DNA from: a virus
Lineage: Duplodnaviria > Heunggongvirae > Uroviricota > Caudoviricetes
Length of the DNA: 64,000 nt
Strand: one strand, 5' to 3'
Virus record (IMG/VR): IMGVR_UViG_2703718815_000003
The stretch's first letter is position 1. Each line of letters starts with the position of its first letter. A program made the position numbers and the translations under genes. Positions 21,391 to 55,381 of the stretch are shown here, in pieces. The notes beneath the pieces are model-generated. The model was not told the origin of the DNA, made no database searches, and was given only the letters and a program-made list of their open reading frames with translations.

Positions 21391-22647
21391 CTACCTAGAG
21401 CCACCAAGAATAACACGGTTTTTGACTGGATACCTACGATGTACTGGATAGCCCAATGCGTCTGCACTATGCTCAATGCCACCTGTCTTATCCATATCTC
21501 GTGTTCCAGGCTTGTAGATGACTTTTTCCAGTGAATCAATCAAATGCTTGCACTTCGGATCGATATACAGCCGGATATCTCCAGATGCGGTCATCAGCAT
21601 TCGGTTAACAGCATTAACACGATCCGCAATTGGCGGGTGCTTTTTCGAATAATCGACACGTAAGAATCCCTTCTCTTTGAATATGTCGACGTCAGACTCC
21701 CCGCGAGCATGTTGGCGATAAGCACCTGCCGGATCTGGAAATACCGTTATCTGTGATTTCCAGCGCCAGAAGCGTCTCTCAAGCTCATCACAAACCTCTG
21801 CCGTGTTAGAGGAAAAGAGCACCAATTCATCAATTGCCCATAGCTCACCATTTGGCTGAGGTTGCAAAATTACTGAAGACATCGGGTCAATGTTGAAGTC
21901 CTGCCCTACCCATATAGGCAACCGAGGGTTGAACTGAAGCGGTTTTACATGCACGTTACGATCGAACGGGTAGTAAACGCGCCCGGACATGTTCTCAAAG
22001 CTCGCCAGGTACTCCTGAGCGAACGATTTGGGGTCCATATCGTTCTTAGCAGCTTCAATTTCCGCCGTAGGTACAAACGGAGAATCGGCAGTTACAAACT
22101 GCCAGCTCTTCCACTGTCCCTTTCTTTGCAGCTCTACGTTCTGGCCTATAGTCCACAGTTTGTGAAATTCCGAGAAGCCTTTTGGCGTACCAATGATCAG
22201 CGCACCGCCGCGTGTCGATGAAAGAGTAGGTCGTAACACCTTGTACCAGGTGTCAGCCTTCATATCCTGAAATTCATCAAGCACTACAAAATGCAACGCT
22301 ACGCCGCGCAGAGTGTCAGGCTTATCAGCACCTTTGAGGGCGATCTCCGAACCGTTCTTCAACACGATTGTCATCGTGGTGTCGTTCTTTTTCCTAACCC
22401 ACTTACGAGGCAGAACTTCCTGTAGATCGTCCCACAAAATCTGGCGAGCCATCTGGTAAGTAGGAGCGACATACCAGACTCTTTGCTTTTTTTCCTTTGC
22501 CGCCGCACGAATAATAGTGGAGATCGACAACCGGGATTTTCCCCAGCGTCGACCAGCACAAACAACTTTAAATCGATGCGGAGACTGGAAGACTTTCATC
22601 TGTCCAGAATGCAGTTGCACAAGACTGAGCGAGGACGGGATTGCCAT
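21391..22647 (-). CDS. terminase large subunit
   Basis: Walker A CAGRRWGKS near N-terminus, Walker B VVLDEFQ, C-terminal nuclease-like region with conserved Asp residues. Confidence 0.85.
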   Translation of the reverse strand: MAIPSSLSLVQLHSGQMKVFQSPHRFKVVCAGRRWGKSRLSISTIIRAAAKEKKQRVWYVAPTYQMARQILWDDLQEVLPRKWVRKKNDTTMTIVLKNGSEIALKGADKPDTLRGVALHFVVLDEFQDMKADTWYKVLRPTLSSTRGGALIIGTPKGFSEFHKLWTIGQNVELQRKGQWKSWQFVTADSPFVPTAEIEAAKNDMDPKSFAQEYLASFENMSGRVYYPFDRNVHVKPLQFNPRLPIWVGQDFNIDPMSSVILQPQPNGELWAIDELVLFSSNTAEVCDELERRFWRWKSQITVFPDPAGAYRQHARGESDVDIFKEKGFLRVDYSKKHPPIADRVNAVNRMLMTASGDIRLYIDPKCKHLIDSLEKVIYKPGTRDMDKTGGIEHSADALGYPVHRRYPVKNRVILGGSR

Positions 22648-23279
22648 TATTCGTCCTCCCCTTCACTTCCATCATCTGTCGCATCAAATTCGCTTAGAGC
22701 TTCTTCTTCCAACGTCTCAAGCAATTCGTCATCGATGATTTCAGGCTCGTCGTCTTCCTGACGTAATTTCGCCACCTGGGAAGGCGTAAGCTCACCAAAT
22801 ACCAGGTTCGGAATTTCTTCCTCGTCATTTTCCGCATGATCCATGCCCAATGCTTTGGACGAAACTTCAAAGCATTTTGCAAGGGTATTACTGGCTCTCT
22901 GTAAGCTCTTGAGAGAATCCTCAATCGCCCCTAAAGGCTTACCCTCACGTTTGGCCGTAGTGACTTCGACCATCACCATCTGCCCCAACGCATACGCCCA
23001 GCCGTCATAACGTGTACGACGTTCTTCTATCTTTTCCGCACGGGCTTTAGCGCGAAGCTCTGCGTCAGATTTAAGAGACTCACGAACCATCTTCCCAACA
23101 GAGTCCGCGCCTTTCTCTAATCCTCGCTTTTTGAAATGTCTGGAGAGTGTTTCACGACGAATGCCGTACTCTTCCTCCAGCTTTGAGAGTGTATATTCGC
23201 CTGACGTCCATTTGGCTTCAGCTTCGGCCCACTCCGCTGGTGTCAGGCGAGTTTTTACCTCGTCTTTTTCGACCGTCAT
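22647..23279 (-). CDS. terminase small subunit (candidate)
   Basis: N-terminal HTH-like LSKLEEEYGIRRETLSRHFKKRG, acidic C-terminus; stop overlaps large-terminase start. Confidence 0.6.
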   Translation of the reverse strand: MTVEKDEVKTRLTPAEWAEAEAKWTSGEYTLSKLEEEYGIRRETLSRHFKKRGLEKGADSVGKMVRESLKSDAELRAKARAEKIEERRTRYDGWAYALGQMVMVEVTTAKREGKPLGAIEDSLKSLQRASNTLAKCFEVSSKALGMDHAENDEEEIPNLVFGELTPSQVAKLRQEDDEPEIIDDELLETLEEEALSEFDATDDGSEGEDE

Positions 23280-23374
23280 AGATCCCTCTAAAACACACAG
23301 AGCGCGTCCATGCGCTCTAAAACAACTTGTTTACTGCATCTGCTAACCAACTTGTTTTCTGGGGTGTTTAATTA

Positions 23375-23473
23375 GGTCTGGGCATGTCTTACTAAGCCTG
23401 CTTCCGTATATATTTAATAAGTTACTTATTATTTATATATACAGAAGCAGGTCTTTAAATAAGCTCCCAGACC
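23375..23473. repeat. about 100-bp imperfect inverted repeat; second copy at 54684-54775
   Basis: Arms ggtctggg...cctgcttccgtatatat around an AT-rich centre. Confidence 0.5.
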
Positions 23474-23475
23474 GA

Positions 23476-23742
23476 TTACATCACCAGTAACTTCGCTTTG
23501 GCTCGACCTAAAGTGGTTAACCCAAGAGTCCGGCGGTGATAGCGATTGTCACTGCGTTGGCGCGTATGCCCTTTCTCCACCAGCCCCTTTTTTATCAGAG
23601 CGCGAATTGAGAACTGGATACTTTGCTTGGTTGTCTTGTACGGCAAAACTTCAAGCAATTCGTCCAGATCAAGTAGATGACCTCGCTCATAACCGAGATT
23701 GAGCGTTTTGATGATGTCCTTTTGTTTGTCGGTTAACGTCAT
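23476..23742 (-). CDS. small basic DNA-binding protein (wHTH/RHH-like, candidate regulator or antitoxin)
   Basis: 88 aa, basic C-terminus; last gene of accessory operon, 10 nt after GNAT stop. Confidence 0.4.
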   Translation of the reverse strand: MTLTDKQKDIIKTLNLGYERGHLLDLDELLEVLPYKTTKQSIQFSIRALIKKGLVEKGHTRQRSDNRYHRRTLGLTTLGRAKAKLLVM

Positions 23743-23751
23743 GGCAAATCC

Positions 23752-24642
23752 TTATGCCGGTAAAGCAATTTCTAACGGTTTATCCAAAGGTTGTTTGTCG
23801 AATGCCAGCAGTGGCAACGTGTCAGGCAGTCGACGGCCAAAGTCAGGGTTTCGGTACACACCATACAACGGAGACGTAAAGCTCAGGTTGTGAATGTCCT
23901 TGAGCAGCTTCACAATGCTGGCCTCGTCCACCAGACTGTCGGCAATGTCCTGAATCGTCGTGCCACGATTCCGCCCAGCTTTTGCCAGGGAACTGTTCTT
24001 GTGGTAGTCCGCCACCAGATCACGCAGTGCACGGCGACGACGAGACTCGCTCATTGCGAACAACTCTTTGACGATCGCCTCGTTATCACCCGGGTCGGAA
24101 CGGAAATGGCGCTGGAATACACGCAGTGCACTTTCATAGCTCTTCGGTCGCTCAGGGCGGATGAACTTAAACCCTGCTTTCATGGCGAAGGGATTGTATT
24201 TGCTCATCGAGGACTGGATCTCAATGATTGGCCGGTCATGCATCCTGCTAACCAGGTTAATCATTCGATAAGAGACGCCTACGCCACGATACTGAGTATC
24301 CACAACTGAGCGACTGATCACCGCAAAGTTGTTATTCACGTACCGACCCCAGTACTGGTTAGCCACGGTGGTATTAGTGGTTGGTTTCAACTTAGGAAAC
24401 ATGCGGTGGCGAGGTGCCAGCAGTAGTTTCGGGTAAGCCATAACCACGACGCCCACCAGACGGTCATCAAGTTCGCAGCGATAGTAAGTTGGCGCGAAAG
24501 GTTTGCCGTCTGTTTTGTAGTGAAGCGACTTAAGAGCGTACCAGTCCTCTACAGTTCCCTTTGTGACAGTCATTCGCTCCAGAAAGTCCAGATGACGCGG
24601 AAACTCTTCAGGGCGGTAGCGTTTAATGATGATGTCCGTCAT
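23752..24642 (-). CDS. GNAT-family acetyltransferase-like protein with N- and C-terminal extensions
   Basis: Motif VVDTQYRGVGVSYRMINLV resembles the GNAT acetyl-CoA motif (Q/R-x-x-G-x-G/A); start overlaps ATPase stop. Confidence 0.5.
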   Translation of the reverse strand: MTDIIIKRYRPEEFPRHLDFLERMTVTKGTVEDWYALKSLHYKTDGKPFAPTYYRCELDDRLVGVVVMAYPKLLLAPRHRMFPKLKPTTNTTVANQYWGRYVNNNFAVISRSVVDTQYRGVGVSYRMINLVSRMHDRPIIEIQSSMSKYNPFAMKAGFKFIRPERPKSYESALRVFQRHFRSDPGDNEAIVKELFAMSESRRRRALRDLVADYHKNSSLAKAGRNRGTTIQDIADSLVDEASIVKLLKDIHNLSFTSPLYGVYRNPDFGRRLPDTLPLLAFDKQPLDKPLEIALPA

Positions 24643-25304
24643 GAATGGACCTCATCATGACTACCATTGTGATATTCCACCTTCACGCGTTCTTTGTAGT
24701 GCTTGGTGATCTGCATATCCGGGCGCAGCGCGTTCTTCAGGTCTTCGTGAGTCGTCGCCACCATTACCGTCGCACCAACCTTTCGAGCGGCACGCTGGAG
24801 GTTAGATGCCACAACCTGAGCGGTTACACGGTCGAGAACAGCGCCGAACTCGTCAGCAGCCCACACTTTAGCGCCTGACTCAATCAGTTTGGCAATCTTG
24901 AGACGATATTTCTGACCGTCTGACATTTCAGAAGGCTTGCGAACAAACAGATATGCATCGTTCAGACCAGCCATAGATAACAACCCAAGCGCATCACTGG
25001 TAGTTTTGCCCAGTTGGTCAATGACGTTAACCTCATTATCGAAGGTAAAATCATCGATGGAGGCCACAGATAGCCCTTCATCCTTCATCTGGTGTTGCAG
25101 CTCGCGCAGCACAACGGATTTGCCGGAACCGGATTGGCCGGTAATGTACACCACATCGCCCTGCTTCACTTCCAGCTCCAGATTGTCGTAAAGCGTCCAC
25201 TCTTTTTCGTCCAGGCCAAGCCCGAACGACTCAGCGATTTCCAACGTGCGCGTGGTTTTATTTACGCGTGTCTGAAACGATACGTTGATGATGTATTTGC
25301 TCAT
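24639..25304 (-). CDS. ABC-type P-loop ATPase (stand-alone nucleotide-binding domain)
   Basis: Walker A GQSGSGKS, signature-like SDGQKYRL, Walker B VWAADEFGAVLD; 221 aa with no transmembrane partner nearby. Confidence 0.6.
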   Translation of the reverse strand: MSKYIINVSFQTRVNKTTRTLEIAESFGLGLDEKEWTLYDNLELEVKQGDVVYITGQSGSGKSVVLRELQHQMKDEGLSVASIDDFTFDNEVNVIDQLGKTTSDALGLLSMAGLNDAYLFVRKPSEMSDGQKYRLKIAKLIESGAKVWAADEFGAVLDRVTAQVVASNLQRAARKVGATVMVATTHEDLKNALRPDMQITKHYKERVKVEYHNGSHDEVHS

Positions 25305-25969
25305 GCAGCCATCTCCCCGGAAGAGATCTTCTCCGCATATGCCACAAATGCGTCTACCCCGCTTTCTCCCGTCATTTCTTCCATGTGGGCAAGCAAATCA
25401 CCAACAACAATGGCAGAGCCAGCAGGGAGCGTTTTAAAGCCCAATACGTCGACAACACGTACTTCTTCCGCTGCAACTTCACGACTGATCTCGGTGTGTT
25501 CATCCTTCTGTCGTTTAGTTTCTTCGCCAAGATCGATAACTAGCGAGTCGGTGTCCATTTCTTCTGTCATGCTGCCAACGAGAACATTCAACTCACGCTC
25601 TTCAAAGCCGAAAACCTCGATATCGTCCAGAACAAGCGACTCAAGCTCTTTCTGTAGCTTAATTGCATCGTAATCAATGCTGGCAAGTCGGTTATCTTCA
25701 AGGCGCTTCGCACGAATCTCGTCATCACTGAGATCATCGCGAACAATAACCGGTACGCGCTCAAGTCCAGCAAAAATTGCAGCCTCACGGCGGCCGTGGC
25801 CAGTAATAATTACGTCGTTCTTATCGACCGTAATTGGCTGGTCAAATCCGCGCTTTTTAATGGCTGCGGCTAGATCTCGGATCTGCTGTTCATCATGCTT
25901 TTTGGCATTCATCTCATAGGGAATAAGATCTGCCGGGTCGCGATATACGATTTCAAACTTTTTGGTCAT
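25301..25969 (-). CDS. ParB/Srx-fold (ParB N-terminal domain) protein 1
   Basis: GHGRREAA matches ParB box II (GERRxRA); start ATG 25967-25969 overlaps upstream stop (TAATG). Confidence 0.7.
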   Translation of the reverse strand: MTKKFEIVYRDPADLIPYEMNAKKHDEQQIRDLAAAIKKRGFDQPITVDKNDVIITGHGRREAAIFAGLERVPVIVRDDLSDDEIRAKRLEDNRLASIDYDAIKLQKELESLVLDDIEVFGFEERELNVLVGSMTEEMDTDSLVIDLGEETKRQKDEHTEISREVAAEEVRVVDVLGFKTLPAGSAIVVGDLLAHMEEMTGESGVDAFVAYAEKISSGEMAA

Positions 25970-26649
25970 TACATACGCTCCTTGTAGTAGTCGACCAGCC
26001 ACACCAGAGCCTCACCAGCGTTCTCCATTTCATTACCGGTGTTAATAGCCTGCTCTTTGATGATGTTTTTTATGGTTTCTGCAACGCGATCTGACGCATC
26101 GAAAGTTACTTTGAAGCGCATGGTCTGATGTTCCGCCCCCACACGTTCGGTTTTCTCTCGTTTGTCGGTATCGACAGGCTCATCACTACCACGAGACAAC
26201 GCCTCCAGTGCTTCAAGGTCGATTGCCGCCTCTTTTGCTATAACCATCGAGATTTCGTCGTCATACGGGGCGATTTCAGACAGTTGATAGTCAAGTTCTG
26301 ACTGAATTTCTTCAATGAAGCGTTGCAATGCGATTTGGTCGTCTTCACCGTATCGCTCGTTGTCCACCAGTGACATCTGTTTAGCTACGACATCGCTAAT
26401 TTTGCCCACAGAAAGCACTGGAACCGTTGAAATTCCTTGCTCAATAGCGGCACGCCAGCGATGTTCGCCGCCGAGGATTTCAAAAAATCCATCTTCAAGT
26501 TCACGAGCCAAAATTGGCTTAAAAAAGCCCAATTTTTCGATAGAACCTTTCAGTTTTTCAAAATTCTGCGCACCAACCGAATTGGTGTTCCAGGTATTCG
26601 GGCGAAGGTTGGCAACATCAACCTGCAAAATCGTGATTTTTACATCCAT
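25969..26649 (-). CDS. ParB/Srx-fold (ParB N-terminal domain) protein 2
   Basis: LGGEHRWRAA matches ParB box II; first ATG at 26647-26649 (track start is GTG). Confidence 0.7.
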   Translation of the reverse strand: MDVKITILQVDVANLRPNTWNTNSVGAQNFEKLKGSIEKLGFFKPILARELEDGFFEILGGEHRWRAAIEQGISTVPVLSVGKISDVVAKQMSLVDNERYGEDDQIALQRFIEEIQSELDYQLSEIAPYDDEISMVIAKEAAIDLEALEALSRGSDEPVDTDKREKTERVGAEHQTMRFKVTFDASDRVAETIKNIIKEQAINTGNEMENAGEALVWLVDYYKERM

Positions 26650-26666
26650 TTTATTGCTACAATCCA

Positions 26667-26694
26667 CTAAGTAATCACTTACTTACTATAATAG
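26667..26694. promoter_or_regulatory. palindromic TAAGTA...TACTTA motif in divergent promoter region
   Basis: ctaagtaatcacttacttactataatag between the divergent ParB operon and helicase gene. Confidence 0.4.
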
Positions 26695-31268: not shown

Positions 31269-31919
31269 ATGGCTAACATTATCATTTCTAAAAAGTCCAT
31301 CATTGAAGCTGCTGCCATTGTATCCGACGAGCTGCGCGAAAAAGCAGATCTGGCAACTCAAACATATAACGAACATTATAAAAATGGTACGCACACAAAA
31401 GCAGACAAAGCAAATATGCAAGCTGCAACCACCAAACTTGCTTACTTCATCAACAACGTCGTAAACGCAGTAGAAGACGAAAAATTATGCTCTGTTTTCT
31501 ACTATGCGATCAAAGCAAGTAAACAAGCGCCAGAAGTATTTTTCCGTGATGCAATGACTAATAGTTATTCACTGGAAAAACTGGTTTATCTGGTTAAATC
31601 CATTAAAGCTGGTAAATGTGTTTATTCCGTCGCTGATATGTCAGGATCTCGTGTGTTCGCTTTAATCGATATGATTAACGACGAGATCGACACGTTCACC
31701 AATGGCGCTGTTTTCGATTTAATGAATGAAGCTAAAAAAGCGTGCGAAATTAAATTGGACGCTGGCTATACTCAAGCCAACCAGCTTATCAATCTTTGCG
31801 AACGTCTTGGACTTGTTGAGAAAGTCAAAGGAATGGGAAGCGCAAAAGCTGGTACGCAGCAATATCGCTTTATTAAAAATGATTTCTATAACTATCTGGC
31901 TGATGCTTTCAAAGCGTAA
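31269..31919 (+). CDS. hypothetical protein
   Basis: AAGGA 8 nt upstream of ATG 31269; 216 aa. Confidence 0.55.
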   Translation: MANIIISKKSIIEAAAIVSDELREKADLATQTYNEHYKNGTHTKADKANMQAATTKLAYFINNVVNAVEDEKLCSVFYYAIKASKQAPEVFFRDAMTNSYSLEKLVYLVKSIKAGKCVYSVADMSGSRVFALIDMINDEIDTFTNGAVFDLMNEAKKACEIKLDAGYTQANQLINLCERLGLVEKVKGMGSAKAGTQQYRFIKNDFYNYLADAFKA

Positions 31920-31932
31920 TTAATGGAATCTG

Positions 31933-31953
31933 GCGCCCACTATGGGCGCTTTT
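31933..31953 (+). terminator. intrinsic terminator (GCGCCCA cta TGGGCGC + TTTT)
   Basis: Perfect 7-bp GC stem followed by T-run. Confidence 0.6.
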
Positions 31954-31966
31954 AAGGAGCTTAATC

Positions 31967-32197
31967 ATGTTTATTCTTATCGCTGGCGTTAACGTGCGCA
32001 ATGAATATTTTGTTAATCGCATCGCTGGGATCGCTGGTTACGCTGGGCGCGCAGTCGAGCTTATAGATGAAACGACGCGCAAAATTGACTTATTGAGCGA
32101 CCAGGAGCGAAAAAAAGCAGACGTGAATGACGCTGATATATTTTTAATGTTAAAAGCGTTTGTAGAAATGGGATTTGAAATCAGTTTACATAAATAA
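31967..32197 (+). CDS. hypothetical small protein
   Basis: AAGGAG 7 nt upstream; 76 aa; bracketed by two identical terminator hairpins. Confidence 0.5.
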   Translation: MFILIAGVNVRNEYFVNRIAGIAGYAGRAVELIDETTRKIDLLSDQERKKADVNDADIFLMLKAFVEMGFEISLHK

Positions 32198-32203
32198 AAT
32201 CGA

Positions 32204-32226
32204 GCGCCCACTATGGGCGCTTTTTT
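32204..32226 (+). terminator. intrinsic terminator, same hairpin as 31933
   Basis: GCGCCCA cta TGGGCGC + TTTTTT. Confidence 0.6.
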
Positions 32227-33782: not shown

Positions 33783-34117
33783 GAGCATATCCTCACTGCG
33801 TAAACATATTGTTTTCTTGTTGGTGTAATTATCGCAGTGTAGATAAGGCATAAAAGAAGTTAATACAGGCTGAATACACAAGAAAGGTTCTGGAAGTTGA
33901 TAGCCAGGTTTCAAACTAACCTTCGGTTATTAAAAGTCATTTAAGACCACCAATGCTGGTGGCCTTAATAATTATCGCCCGATTACGCTAAGGATCTTTT
34001 CCTCAACTGATTTGTTGTTGCGACTAAACTGCCTTGCGTATCTGATGACAGAAGAGGCGTTTCGCTTTCTGACCATCTCGGCTCTCTCCTTCAGGCGTTT
34101 CTTGAAATCGCCCATAT

Positions 34118-54371: not shown

Positions 54372-54602
54372 TCATTGTGATTGATTATTTTCTCTACCAT
54401 GTAGTTGAACATTCAAGGCAAACACCTCATTGATCAACTCACCTAAAAGCTGTTCAACAAGTTCGCGATGCTCGCCAAGATGCAAGCACTTAATTGCCCA
54501 TTCGTACAAGTTGAAAGCCTGCTCACGATCTTTCATCATTTCACGAGCCTGGGCCAGAAAATCGCTCTCTACGAGCGCAACGACATTAGTCGGGTATGAC
54601 AT
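54372..54602 (-). CDS. hypothetical small protein
   Basis: Start ATG 54602 with AAGGA upstream. Confidence 0.45.
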   Translation of the reverse strand: MSYPTNVVALVESDFLAQAREMMKDREQAFNLYEWAIKCLHLGEHRELVEQLLGELINEVFALNVQLHGRENNQSQ

Positions 54603-54683
54603 GTTGGTTTCCTTAAAGTGGTTCATAAAATCGATTTTAAAGCGTCTGGGAAGGGGTTCTAGTGGATTCTGTAGTGATGTTCA

Positions 54684-54775
54684 GGTCTGGAGTCTCTGAT
54701 ACAAAACAGCCTGCTTCCGTATATTAATAATTAATATGTAGTTATTTATATATACAGAAGCAGGCTAATTACAGA
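54684..54775. repeat. second copy of the imperfect inverted repeat seen at 23375-23473
   Basis: Shares ggtctgg...agcctgcttccgtatat...atatatacagaagcagg. Confidence 0.5.
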
Positions 54776-54787
54776 CGCCAGAACAAA

Positions 54788-55381
54788 CTAAGCAGCCTTC
54801 TTTGATGGTCTTTTTTTCCTGATCACATTCGCAGGATCATACCCTCCCAGACTTTTCATGACGTCCAAAGGGATCTTGCTTATAGAGTGCCCAGCGTCCT
54901 GACAGAATCCTCGAAAAACAACGAGCATACTGCCACCTGGGTTGATGTTTACTTCTACCTGACCCAGATTGACGTCAGGCTCGACAAACGCTACGCGGCC
55001 ACCAGACAGAATAATCGTCTCATTCGCACACTCTGTTGCACGCTCATACCACTTTGTATCTAGGGATTGAGGAATTAGCATCACTGTTGTAACTCCGCGA
55101 GCCTGCTCACGTATAGCCGCATCAATCCAGGGGGAGATTTTGGAGTAGGGTGGATTGAGGAAGGCAATTGTACCTGGCTGTCCCCATTCAGATTTCAAAG
55201 CATCACGCTCAACGCCTATGAAATTAGGCAGCTTTGCATTGTCCTTGTTGCAGGCAACGTCAACATCAAATGTCACTCCAAGATAACGTTGAATGGCAGA
55301 AAACAGCCAGTCAGGTGTTCTCCAGAGGTCACGAAGAGAGTTGTCGCGCTTTCGCTGTTTGATTTTTTCGGCTGCAATCAT
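54788..55381 (-). CDS. phage-type N6-adenine DNA methyltransferase (Dam-like)
   Basis: WRTPDWLF N-terminus and FLNPPYS catalytic motif. Confidence 0.8.
   Translation of the reverse strand: MIAAEKIKQRKRDNSLRDLWRTPDWLFSAIQRYLGVTFDVDVACNKDNAKLPNFIGVERDALKSEWGQPGTIAFLNPPYSKISPWIDAAIREQARGVTTVMLIPQSLDTKWYERATECANETIILSGGRVAFVEPDVNLGQVEVNINPGGSMLVVFRGFCQDAGHSISKIPLDVMKSLGGYDPANVIRKKRPSKKAA

Follow-up and report, generated by a model that had tools for sequence, protein, structure and literature searches.

Three-copy palindromic hairpins at the gene-block borders of SSU5-type phage-plasmids as candidate transcription terminators or insulators

A long imperfect palindrome lies just before the putative small terminase gene (terS) of the tailed virus recorded in IMG/VR as IMGVR_UViG_2703718815_000003, and a second copy lies about 31 kb away from it. 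The question is what such a repeat does at both places. The first-pass annotation had suggested a packaging site (cos or pac) or a bidirectional terminator. The window analysed here is the whole stretch of 64,000 nucleotides from this record. Its minus strand holds nearly all of its genes and is the sense strand here. We call the copy before terS c1, the copy after the dam gene c2, and a third copy, found in relatives, c3. According to our analysis, the element is most likely a small conserved family of terminator/insulator hairpins placed at gene-block borders and previously unannotated, and it is probably not a packaging site.

Anatomy and folding of the palindromes

The inverted repeat of about 100 bp beside terS is confirmed by its sequence and by folding beyond chance, and so is the arrangement described for the two loci, GGTCTGG arms around a long hairpin with an AT-rich centre (Table 1). 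Both follow the same general plan, in which outer arms GGTCTGG/CCAGAC enclose an inner arm of 15-17 bp (CCTGCTTCYGTATAT) and its AT-rich centre. In the sense orientation, c1 opens 3 bp past the stop of an 88-aa ORF and ends 96 bp before terS, whose start is at 23279 on the minus strand; the latter distance agrees with the "about 100 bp" given before. Extra TCTGG motifs are present between c1 and terS. The same interval holds two motifs of a 13-bp palindromic family and, in the terS leader, a small hairpin with a U-run. The latter is a second terminator-like site, and it is kept in the orthologue alignment.

The second copy exists and starts where it had been placed, at 54684. Its end had been given as 54775 and has to be moved to 54784, because the right outer arm GCCAGAAC at 54777-54784 makes c2 about 9 bp longer. 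The two copies have in common a 57-nt core with 82% identity. Within the window we found no further copies beyond c1 and c2.

Palindromy at c1 and c2 exceeds chance. The folding control consisted of 200 dinucleotide shuffles, none of which gave an equally good fold. The folding energy of the two loci as DNA is -18.7 to -24.7 kcal/mol (z -5.7 to -8.2), and that of their minus-strand RNA is -50.6 and -39.3 kcal/mol (z -10.0 and -7.9). Across the DNA and RNA runs, the z value of c1 spans -6.5 to -10. Taken alone, the inner hairpins give -27.8 kcal/mol at c2, -31 at c1 and -33 at c3 of the Escherichia phage-plasmid Cyrano (z -6 to -9.8). On the sense strand, a helix of about 40-45 pairs with internal loops is predicted. 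The outer flanks of c1 and c2 contribute complementarity despite their sequence divergence (z -3 to -5, the entry for the left outer flank of c1 being -3.75).

Comparison of 34 distinct cores showed that 15 of the 17 arm positions are invariant. Position 9 is a C-G pair in 12 cores, T-A in six and an intermediate C.A or T.G in 16, while position 8 underwent one double change from C-G to T-A, in Klebsiella c2. RNAalifold predicts 36 pairs for nine c1 orthologues, four of them with compensatory changes, which include outer-stem pairs in a divergent contig (orthologue L015). An Rfam search of both loci at a permissive threshold returned only sub-threshold matches to generic hairpins (miRNA precursors).

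Table 1. Positions of the palindromes, their parts and the neighbouring genes in the window
Feature	Position	Strand	Remarks
terS, putative small terminase / DNA-binding protein (phrog_867)	22647-23279	-	first late gene downstream of c1
GC-rich small hairpin and U-run, terS leader	23298-23319	-	directly before terS ribosome-binding site
Two AAACAAnTTGTTT 13-bp palindromic motifs	23320-23357		between c1 and terS; belong to a 14-copy family in the window
c1, whole imperfect palindrome	23375-23473	-	between stop of 88-aa winged-helix-like ORF and terS leader
c1 left outer arm GGTCTGGG	23375-23382	+	partner of right outer arm
c1 right outer arm CCCAGACC	23466-23473		partner of left outer arm
c1 inner 55-bp core	23397-23451		15-17-bp arms CCTGCTTCYGTATAT(AT) and AT-rich centre containing AAGTNACTT
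c1 inner arm CCTGCTTCCGTATAT	23397-23411		AT-rich centre between the inner arms
c1 inner arm ATATACAGAAGCAGG	23437-23451		
88-aa winged-helix-like ORF (phrog_900)	23476-23742	-	stop 3 bp before c1
84-aa ORF (phrog_5343)	54372-54626	-	first gene downstream of c2
c2, whole palindrome	54684-54784	-	between dam stop (54788) and 84-aa ORF start (54626)
c2 left outer arm GGTCTGG	54684-54690		
c2 U-rich tail CUGUUUUGUAU	54699-54709	-	immediately 3' of inner stem, sense strand
c2 inner core	54710-54764		arms 54710-54724 and 54750-54764, as in c1; AT-rich centre different
c2 right outer arm GCCAGAAC	54777-54784		
dam, Dam-type N6-adenine methyltransferase gene	54788-55381	-	stop codon precedes c2

A three-copy family in SSU5-type phage-plasmids

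The window belongs to a phage-plasmid of the SSU5/pHCM2/pMT1 type. The surroundings of both loci are 98-99.6% identical to the Escherichia phage-plasmids CMS-2020a, PhiR41_1 and Cyrano (the plasmid pLF82), about 80% identical to Klebsiella phage-plasmids and about 76-86% identical to Salmonella phage SSU5. Comparison with these relatives indicates that both loci are members of a three-copy repeat located at the borders of the main gene blocks. The intergenic sites are fixed: c1 before terS, c2 after dam and c3 before a block encoding a DnaB helicase and a primase. c3 lies outside the window and would fall about 31 kb past c1 in window coordinates; on the 108.4-kb circle of Cyrano the copies stand at about 0, 31.2 and 78.1 kb. 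A second copy some 31 kb away had seemed odd for a simple terminator. We agree, and a small conserved repeat family explains it.

The three copies delimit blocks of different content. From c1 to c3 lie the late genes for structure and lysis, from c3 to c2 those for DNA replication, recombination and nucleotide metabolism, and from c2 to c1 the early and accessory genes. The 88-aa ORF next to c1 is the last gene of an operon that also encodes two proteins with a ParB N-terminal domain and two ABC-type ATPases. Recombination functions are well represented in the phage-plasmid, which encodes T4-like UvsW and UvsY, a gp32-like SSB, RecA-like, SbcCD-like and RuvC-like proteins and an RNase H. No paralogy was found among the genes that flank the three copies.

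The family is widespread within this type of replicon. A search of IMG/VR with the exact arm pattern retrieved 94 stretches. Complete contigs of about 100-114 kb have exactly three copies each, as exemplified by IMGVR_UViG_2718218304_000001 and by a 108.7-kb contig of Kluyvera sp. STS39-E. In PLSDB, the c1 locus is present in about 800 plasmids and the c2 locus in about 700; c1 carriers include plasmids of Klebsiella, Escherichia, Enterobacter, Citrobacter and Cronobacter as well as Yersinia pMT1 and Salmonella plasmids of the pHCM2 type. The element occurs in 260 of 5,426 complete E. coli genomes, and 954 of its 956 places there are plasmid-borne. With a relaxed pattern, true members among 185,579 species-representative genomes were confined to the SSU5-type phage-plasmid group; the remaining matches are without flanks and look like chance. 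No annotated feature was found at the element in the complete E. coli genomes or in the other records checked.

Conservation differs between the parts of the element. The inner 55 bp of c1, arms and centre, are about 95% identical between the E. coli and SSU5 types and nearly unchanged from E. coli to SSU5/pMT1 and Klebsiella. This is above the coding sequence, which is about 86% identical to that of SSU5. The spacers between inner and outer arms are about 50% identical, with many substitutions and indels, and retain partial complementarity. The outer GGTCTGGGAG arms are conserved as well. A core conserved above coding DNA, unlike that of ordinary terminators, suggests a sequence-specific partner.

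The copies evolve in concert. In E. coli types the 55-bp cores of c1 and c3 are identical and all three copies carry the same C.A/U.G mismatch, and the Kluyvera copies have lineage-specific centre variants in common. Read on the sense strand, the shared mismatch appears as U.G in every E. coli copy and also in c3 of Enterobacter ludwigii. In c2 of Klebsiella and Kluyvera the same asymmetric core is reversed, so that the sense strand there has C.A and U.C, and Klebsiella c1 and c2 present this core in opposite orientations relative to transcription. A strand test for constraint at the RNA level (G.U versus A.C) is suggestive at c1 and in the E. coli copies and is contradicted by c2 of Klebsiella and Kluyvera. 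TCTGG-like repeats stand beside Klebsiella c2 with spacings of 21, 21 and 11 bp. The upstream flank of c3 exists in at least three unrelated versions, which part from each other precisely where the inner arm ends; one has a divergent gene for a GIY-YIG nuclease and another the end of a parA/RHH/DUF2971 operon. In the plasmid type of the window, c3 lies between divergent genes because the GIY-YIG gene has been inserted.

Transcription past the three sites

The placement of the copies relative to genes is constant. In the sense orientation each one starts 3-25 nt past a stop codon, between co-directional genes, as read in the window for c1 and c2 and in Cyrano for c3. At c2 and c3, a run of four to five U follows the inner stem in all lineages and on the sense strand only, with the tails CUGUUUUGUA or CUUUUUAAGA at c2 and UCUUUUAAAA at c3. 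Averaged over 24 and 14 distinct sequences, the longest T run measures 4.0 on the sense strand versus 2.0-2.1 on the antisense; strands were assigned from flank markers, an assignment by ORF length having been dropped as too ambiguous. In the E. coli, SSU5 and Klebsiella lineages neither strand of c1 has a U-run, and under the standard model of intrinsic termination this copy would terminate poorly. A scan for sigma-70 promoters gave none at c1 or c3 and one weak plus-strand match at c2.

Expression data from a relative bear on c3. In the per-gene RNA-seq of LF82/Cyrano (PMC9928086, supplementary file 2), CYRAN_28, CYRAN_29 and CYRAN_30 have 50, 89 and 55 normalised reads, with log2 values up to 10.4. 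CYRAN_31, the next co-directional gene past c3, is at the floor, with 6.2 reads and log2 values of 2.3-4.2 (PMC9928086). The drop across c3 is thus at least 60-200-fold and amounts to 6-7.7 log2 units in several conditions (PMC9928086). The gap between CYRAN_30 and CYRAN_31 measures 193 bp, and its sole strong structure is the c3 hairpin (-33 kcal/mol, z -9.8), followed by UCUUUUAAAG; no other terminator-like site was found in this gap. The neighbours of c1 and c2 are near background in this lysogen table, so it bears on c3 only; at c1 the values fall by just 1-2 log2 units, in two conditions. As for the bidirectional terminator that had been proposed, the role as terminator or insulator is supported and the two-way action is not, with U-runs on the sense strand only (c2, c3) and the expression drop across c3.

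Distant relatives, with TerS proteins 59-65% identical, add to this picture. Their c1 arms are degenerate and yet form a long-range stem, with U8 or U5 after it. At their c2 and c3 sites a different shared element is followed by ordinary terminators made of a GC hairpin and a T-run, and the c3 site of Morganella has a small hairpin with a T-run. Since the distant relatives keep terminators at the three sites, these positions are conserved ends of transcription units.

With modest confidence, we think that the palindromes are a three-copy set of long stem-loops at the 3' ends of transcription units, where they act as terminators or insulators. Transcription of the sense strand would yield the 17-bp inner stem, topped by AU-rich sequence, and at c2 and c3 this stem and its U4-5 would make a strong factor-independent terminator. 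Termination would keep transcription of plasmid-state or upstream genes out of the next block; for c2 of the window, termination is a prediction. Transcripts that read through would fold into the full irregular helix of about 45 bp, composed of the inner stem, the paired spacers and the outer arms GGUCUGG/CCAGACC. Such a helix is a natural substrate for RNase III, and its processing could thus separate and stabilise the upstream message. We hypothesize that RNase III processing is the likeliest role of c1, which is without a U-run and is backed by the small terminator before terS. Gene conversion may keep the copies alike, and these may double as short homology patches where flanking modules are swapped.

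In this respect, it is useful to compare the element with known systems. Like intrinsic terminators, it has a stem-loop right after a stop codon, U4-5 at c2 and c3 and an expression drop at c3. Unlike them, it has a 17-bp stem and an AU-rich, partly paired top of 20-25 nt, set within a second, outer helix and about 100 nt in all, c1 has no U-run, and its sequence is conserved across genera and between copies. The intergenic RNase III sites of phages T7 and T3, about ten in T7, were reportedly described by Dunn and Studier in 1983. In T7, the 3' hairpin left by cleavage protects the upstream message. The resemblance lies in a few similar intergenic hairpins with upper and lower stems and internal loops, in long same-strand transcripts, and the helix predicted here agrees with the T7-type requirement of at least about 20 bp of irregular dsRNA in a polycistronic transcript. 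The palindromes differ from the T7 sites in being three, longer and terminator-like, and cleavage is here a prediction. REP/BIME and RIP elements number hundreds of copies in enterobacterial chromosomes and have a different consensus. They too are transcribed imperfect palindromes at gene 3' ends, where they stabilise upstream mRNA and can bind DNA-level factors, whereas the present element is confined to one phage-plasmid group and fixed at three sites. Finally, the PeSL cassettes of T4-type phages are small, numerous, located in hyperplastic regions and provided with an early sigma-70 promoter, and they mediate module shuffling (PMC2839356, PMC4122927). A conserved intergenic terminator motif that serves as exchange junction between unrelated flanks is also what c3 shows; nevertheless, there are only three copies here, they stand at block borders, and no sigma-70 promoter was detected at c1 and c3.

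A simple terminator leaves several traits unaccounted for: the conservation of arms and centre, the conservation of the outer arms, the concerted evolution and the absence of a U-run at c1. It is tempting to propose that the palindromes are sequence-specific switch points recognised by a factor of the phage-plasmid, either as regulated terminators or as DNA sites of dual use, although we consider this unlikely. If it were so, in the regulated version a phage antiterminator would read the conserved stem and centre and thereby set a three-step temporal programme. In the dual-use version the sites would be lytic origins, or SbcCD/RuvC-type break sites, that start recombination-dependent replication from the circular plasmid prophage. 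Each of the two would account for why arms and centre are conserved from genus to genus, why the outer GGTCTGGGAG arms are kept, why the copies evolve in concert and why modules are swapped at their edges.

Other readings and the meaning of the family

A role in DNA during lytic growth may coexist with termination, and we regard it as a possibility of rather low probability. The palindromes would then be replication origins, with inverted initiator sites around an AT-rich unwinding centre, or sites where extruded cruciforms or hairpins are cut by the phage-plasmid's own SbcCD-like and RuvC-like nucleases to initiate recombination-dependent replication; our estimate applies to the two versions jointly. 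Palindromic viral origins are known, as in oriL and the two oriS of HSV-1 and in oriL/oriR of SPP1. Those origins too are AT-centred palindromes with conserved inverted arms, dispersed in two or three copies, one of which is beside replication genes; here, however, what the U-runs and the fall in expression suggest is a role in RNA, and an origin is a candidate function. The reading gains from arms and centre that are conserved from genus to genus next to diverging spacers, from the spread of the copies round the circle of Cyrano, and from the T4-like gene set for recombination and replication, SbcCD-like and RuvC-like proteins included. The TCTGG-like motifs repeated beside Klebsiella c2 also fit, and concerted evolution with flank swaps at the inner-arm edge of c3 would suit a hot spot of break and repair. 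Furthermore, c3 lies directly upstream of genes for a conserved 244-aa protein, a DnaB-like helicase and a primase, and this linkage is retained even in an unrelated-looking 61-kb plasmid of Enterobacter ludwigii. However, replication genes adjoin c3 only, and the confident model of the 244-aa protein (pLDDT 87) found no meaningful fold match, giving no support for an initiator or loader. GC and AT skew show no shift at c1 or c2 and track gene direction, and in the distant relatives palindromy is lost at all three sites while terminators are kept. The spacing of the copies and the sequence conservation of both arm motifs would also suit binding sites of a genome-wide phage-plasmid protein, either dispersed centromere-like sites, for which N15 is a precedent, or sites of a global regulator. 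Candidate binders would be a type Ib ParA/RHH pair, from the parA and RHH-like operon that c3 follows, or the ParB-like proteins of the operon with two ParB-N-domain genes at whose end c1 lies. We find this improbable: judging from the sequence, the half-sites are about 40 bp apart from centre to centre, unlike parS or sopC, compensatory changes keep palindromy and not the half-site sequence, and a ParB/KorB-like operator is more readily seen in the 13-bp AAACAAnTTGTTT motif with its 14 copies.

The packaging site that had been suggested is not supported, and we consider it very improbable. It would require c1 to be the site of recognition and cleavage and the other copies to be inactive look-alikes that do not have a terminase-binding flank. 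c1 does stand right upstream of terS, with the extra TCTGG motifs in between, and the linear SSU5 record ends in ...cttatta and starts with aatatatacggaagcagg, inside the AT-rich centre of c1. The joined ends of this record reproduce circular relatives exactly, with no base missing or duplicated. This record boundary is the only evidence for a terminus at c1, and an assembler would naturally break at a three-copy palindrome, which would explain this boundary. The Cyrano record starts one base from that of SSU5; it is a re-annotation of plasmid pLF82, compared with SSU5 by its authors, so its start was probably copied from SSU5 by opening the circle to match and is not independent. A second terminus near c2, suggested by the record start of Klebsiella phage p4727, was rejected, as that record starts at the ATG of a gene. 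Against a packaging role, the site is not unique, with three copies per replicon and inner cores of c1 and c3 that are identical in E. coli types, and distant relatives that retain the terS, terL and portal genes have a degenerate c1 palindrome. Moreover, TerL (418 aa) appears closer to T5-like, Jersey-/Kagunavirus-like and P74-26-type enzymes than to the cos terminases of lambda, HK97 or P2; it matches Terminase_6N and Terminase_3, with its nearest characterised relatives at 25-33% identity. A literature search for termini or packaging of SSU5-type phages returned nothing, and Cyrano did not rise above background in the public LF82 virome (ERR8973296). That the element is a selfish, functionless miniature palindrome of the MITE, REP or ERIC kind, landed by chance of insertion in three intergenic sites, is hardly credible. 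In favour of this reading, the imperfect palindrome is repeated, its terminal arms are conserved, and it turns up at junctions of rearrangement as well as in 51-96-kb derivative plasmids. Nonetheless, there are at most three copies per replicon, at the same syntenic sites in Escherichia, Salmonella, Yersinia, Klebsiella, Kluyvera and Buttiauxella, target-site duplications were not seen, nearly all E. coli places are plasmid-borne, and among the species-representative genomes no true match lies outside the SSU5-type group.

Some further candidates were set aside. A telRL protelomerase target was rejected, as the whole-replicon annotation of Cyrano has no protelomerase and related plasmids are circular records. 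A LexA box was dropped since the separation of the half-sites CTGTATAT/ATATACAG is about 25 bp too large. An IHF consensus, a Chi-like CTGGTGG beside c3, XerCD/dif and attC were considered from the sequence and dropped.

In summary, the terminator/insulator reading bears on a group of replicons of practical interest. Phage-plasmids of the SSU5/pHCM2/pMT1 type are common in clinical Enterobacterales, and some carry resistance genes. The palindrome is a plausible site of module exchange and of the deletions that yield defective derivatives, and its three copies are likely to break contigs and to give records arbitrary starts. Three fixed insulating hairpins would provide a testable handle on how about 100 kb of same-strand lytic genes are silenced while plasmid genes stay on.

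A 13-bp palindromic motif and other repeats

Beyond the long palindromes, the window contains a 13-bp palindromic motif that occurs 14 times within it, when up to one mismatch is allowed, against 0.41 occurrences expected (see table). Many copies lie within a longer form, TAAACAAsTTGTTTTCT. The motif looks like a candidate regulatory element, either an operator or a promoter component, for a global regulator. It resembles in form the KorB operators of RK2, and the same phage-plasmid encodes two ParB-N-domain proteins.

The AT-rich region at 28-38 kb holds two pairs of near-identical GC-rich hairpins. Situated between small genes, these hairpins and close-by copies of the 13-bp motif make up cassettes of terminator plus motif that recall the PeSL (promoter/stem-loop) cassettes of T4-type phages. 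Elsewhere, a long minus-strand coding region contains a tandem array of four 99-nt units at 1978-2373, which share 62-72% identity with the first of them. They represent a repeated 33-aa protein module, which probably belongs to a tail or fibre protein.

Repeats, hairpins and associated genes (window coordinates unless a sequence is named)
Feature	Position	Strand	Context
AAACAAnTTGTTT motif	23320-23332, 23345-23357		between palindrome copy 1 and terS
AAACAAnTTGTTT motif, other 12 copies (starts)	33317, 33802, 34552, 35455, 35939, 37090, 38530, 38581, 47017, 51557, 52286, 62508		
Hairpin pair TTAAGGCCACCAGCATTGGTGGCCTTAA	33470-33497, 33941-33968		AT-rich region
Hairpin pair GCGCCCACTATGGGCGCTTTT	31919-31953, 32190-32224		AT-rich region
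Small GC hairpin + U-run (AGAGCGCAUGGACGCGCUCU GUGUGUUUU)	23298-23319	minus	directly before terS ribosome-binding site
Operon	about 24639-26667	minus	ends at copy 1
255-aa gene, LEM-3-like GIY-YIG nuclease domain	L082 4687-5454	divergent	beside copy 3; near-identical plasmid, outside window
Palindrome copy	L009 3002-3056		derivative plasmid, E. albertii p3RM15115
~55-nt repeat CTTAATTAAAAAGATTTTAAAAAGAGCTTTAAATACTATCYRGAGCMAGGCT	L137 4075-4125, 31575-31625		copy 2 and copy 3 sites; K. michiganensis NZ_CP056140.1

Genes on either side of copy 1

Besides the two ParB-N-domain proteins, the operon ending at copy 1 encodes an ABC-type ATPase and a 296-aa ATPase-like protein, together with an 88-aa wHTH protein. 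According to the published RNA-seq table (PMC9928086), this operon is silent in LF82 lysogens. The hairpin and U-run of the terS leader are kept in SSU5, pMT1 and Klebsiella relatives, and Acinetobacter relatives have a counterpart, an arrangement which suggests that the late operon may be under antitermination control.

Copy 2 and copy 3 sites in related plasmids

In L137, a distant, partly degraded relative, the copy 2 and copy 3 sites share a different repeat, whose 3' part is similar to the right arm of the palindrome; each of its two copies is followed by its own ordinary terminator. Beside copy 3, Cyrano (the re-annotated pLF82) carries a DUF2971 gene in place of the GIY-YIG gene seen in the window's plasmid type, and the latter gene resembles a mobile nuclease gene located where modules join. 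Smaller derivative plasmids (L009, and the 51-96 kb plasmids L006 and L007) retain a palindrome copy whose neighbours are new, such as a ParE/RelE toxin pair. These new neighbours suggest that the palindromes may be end points of deletions or rearrangements.
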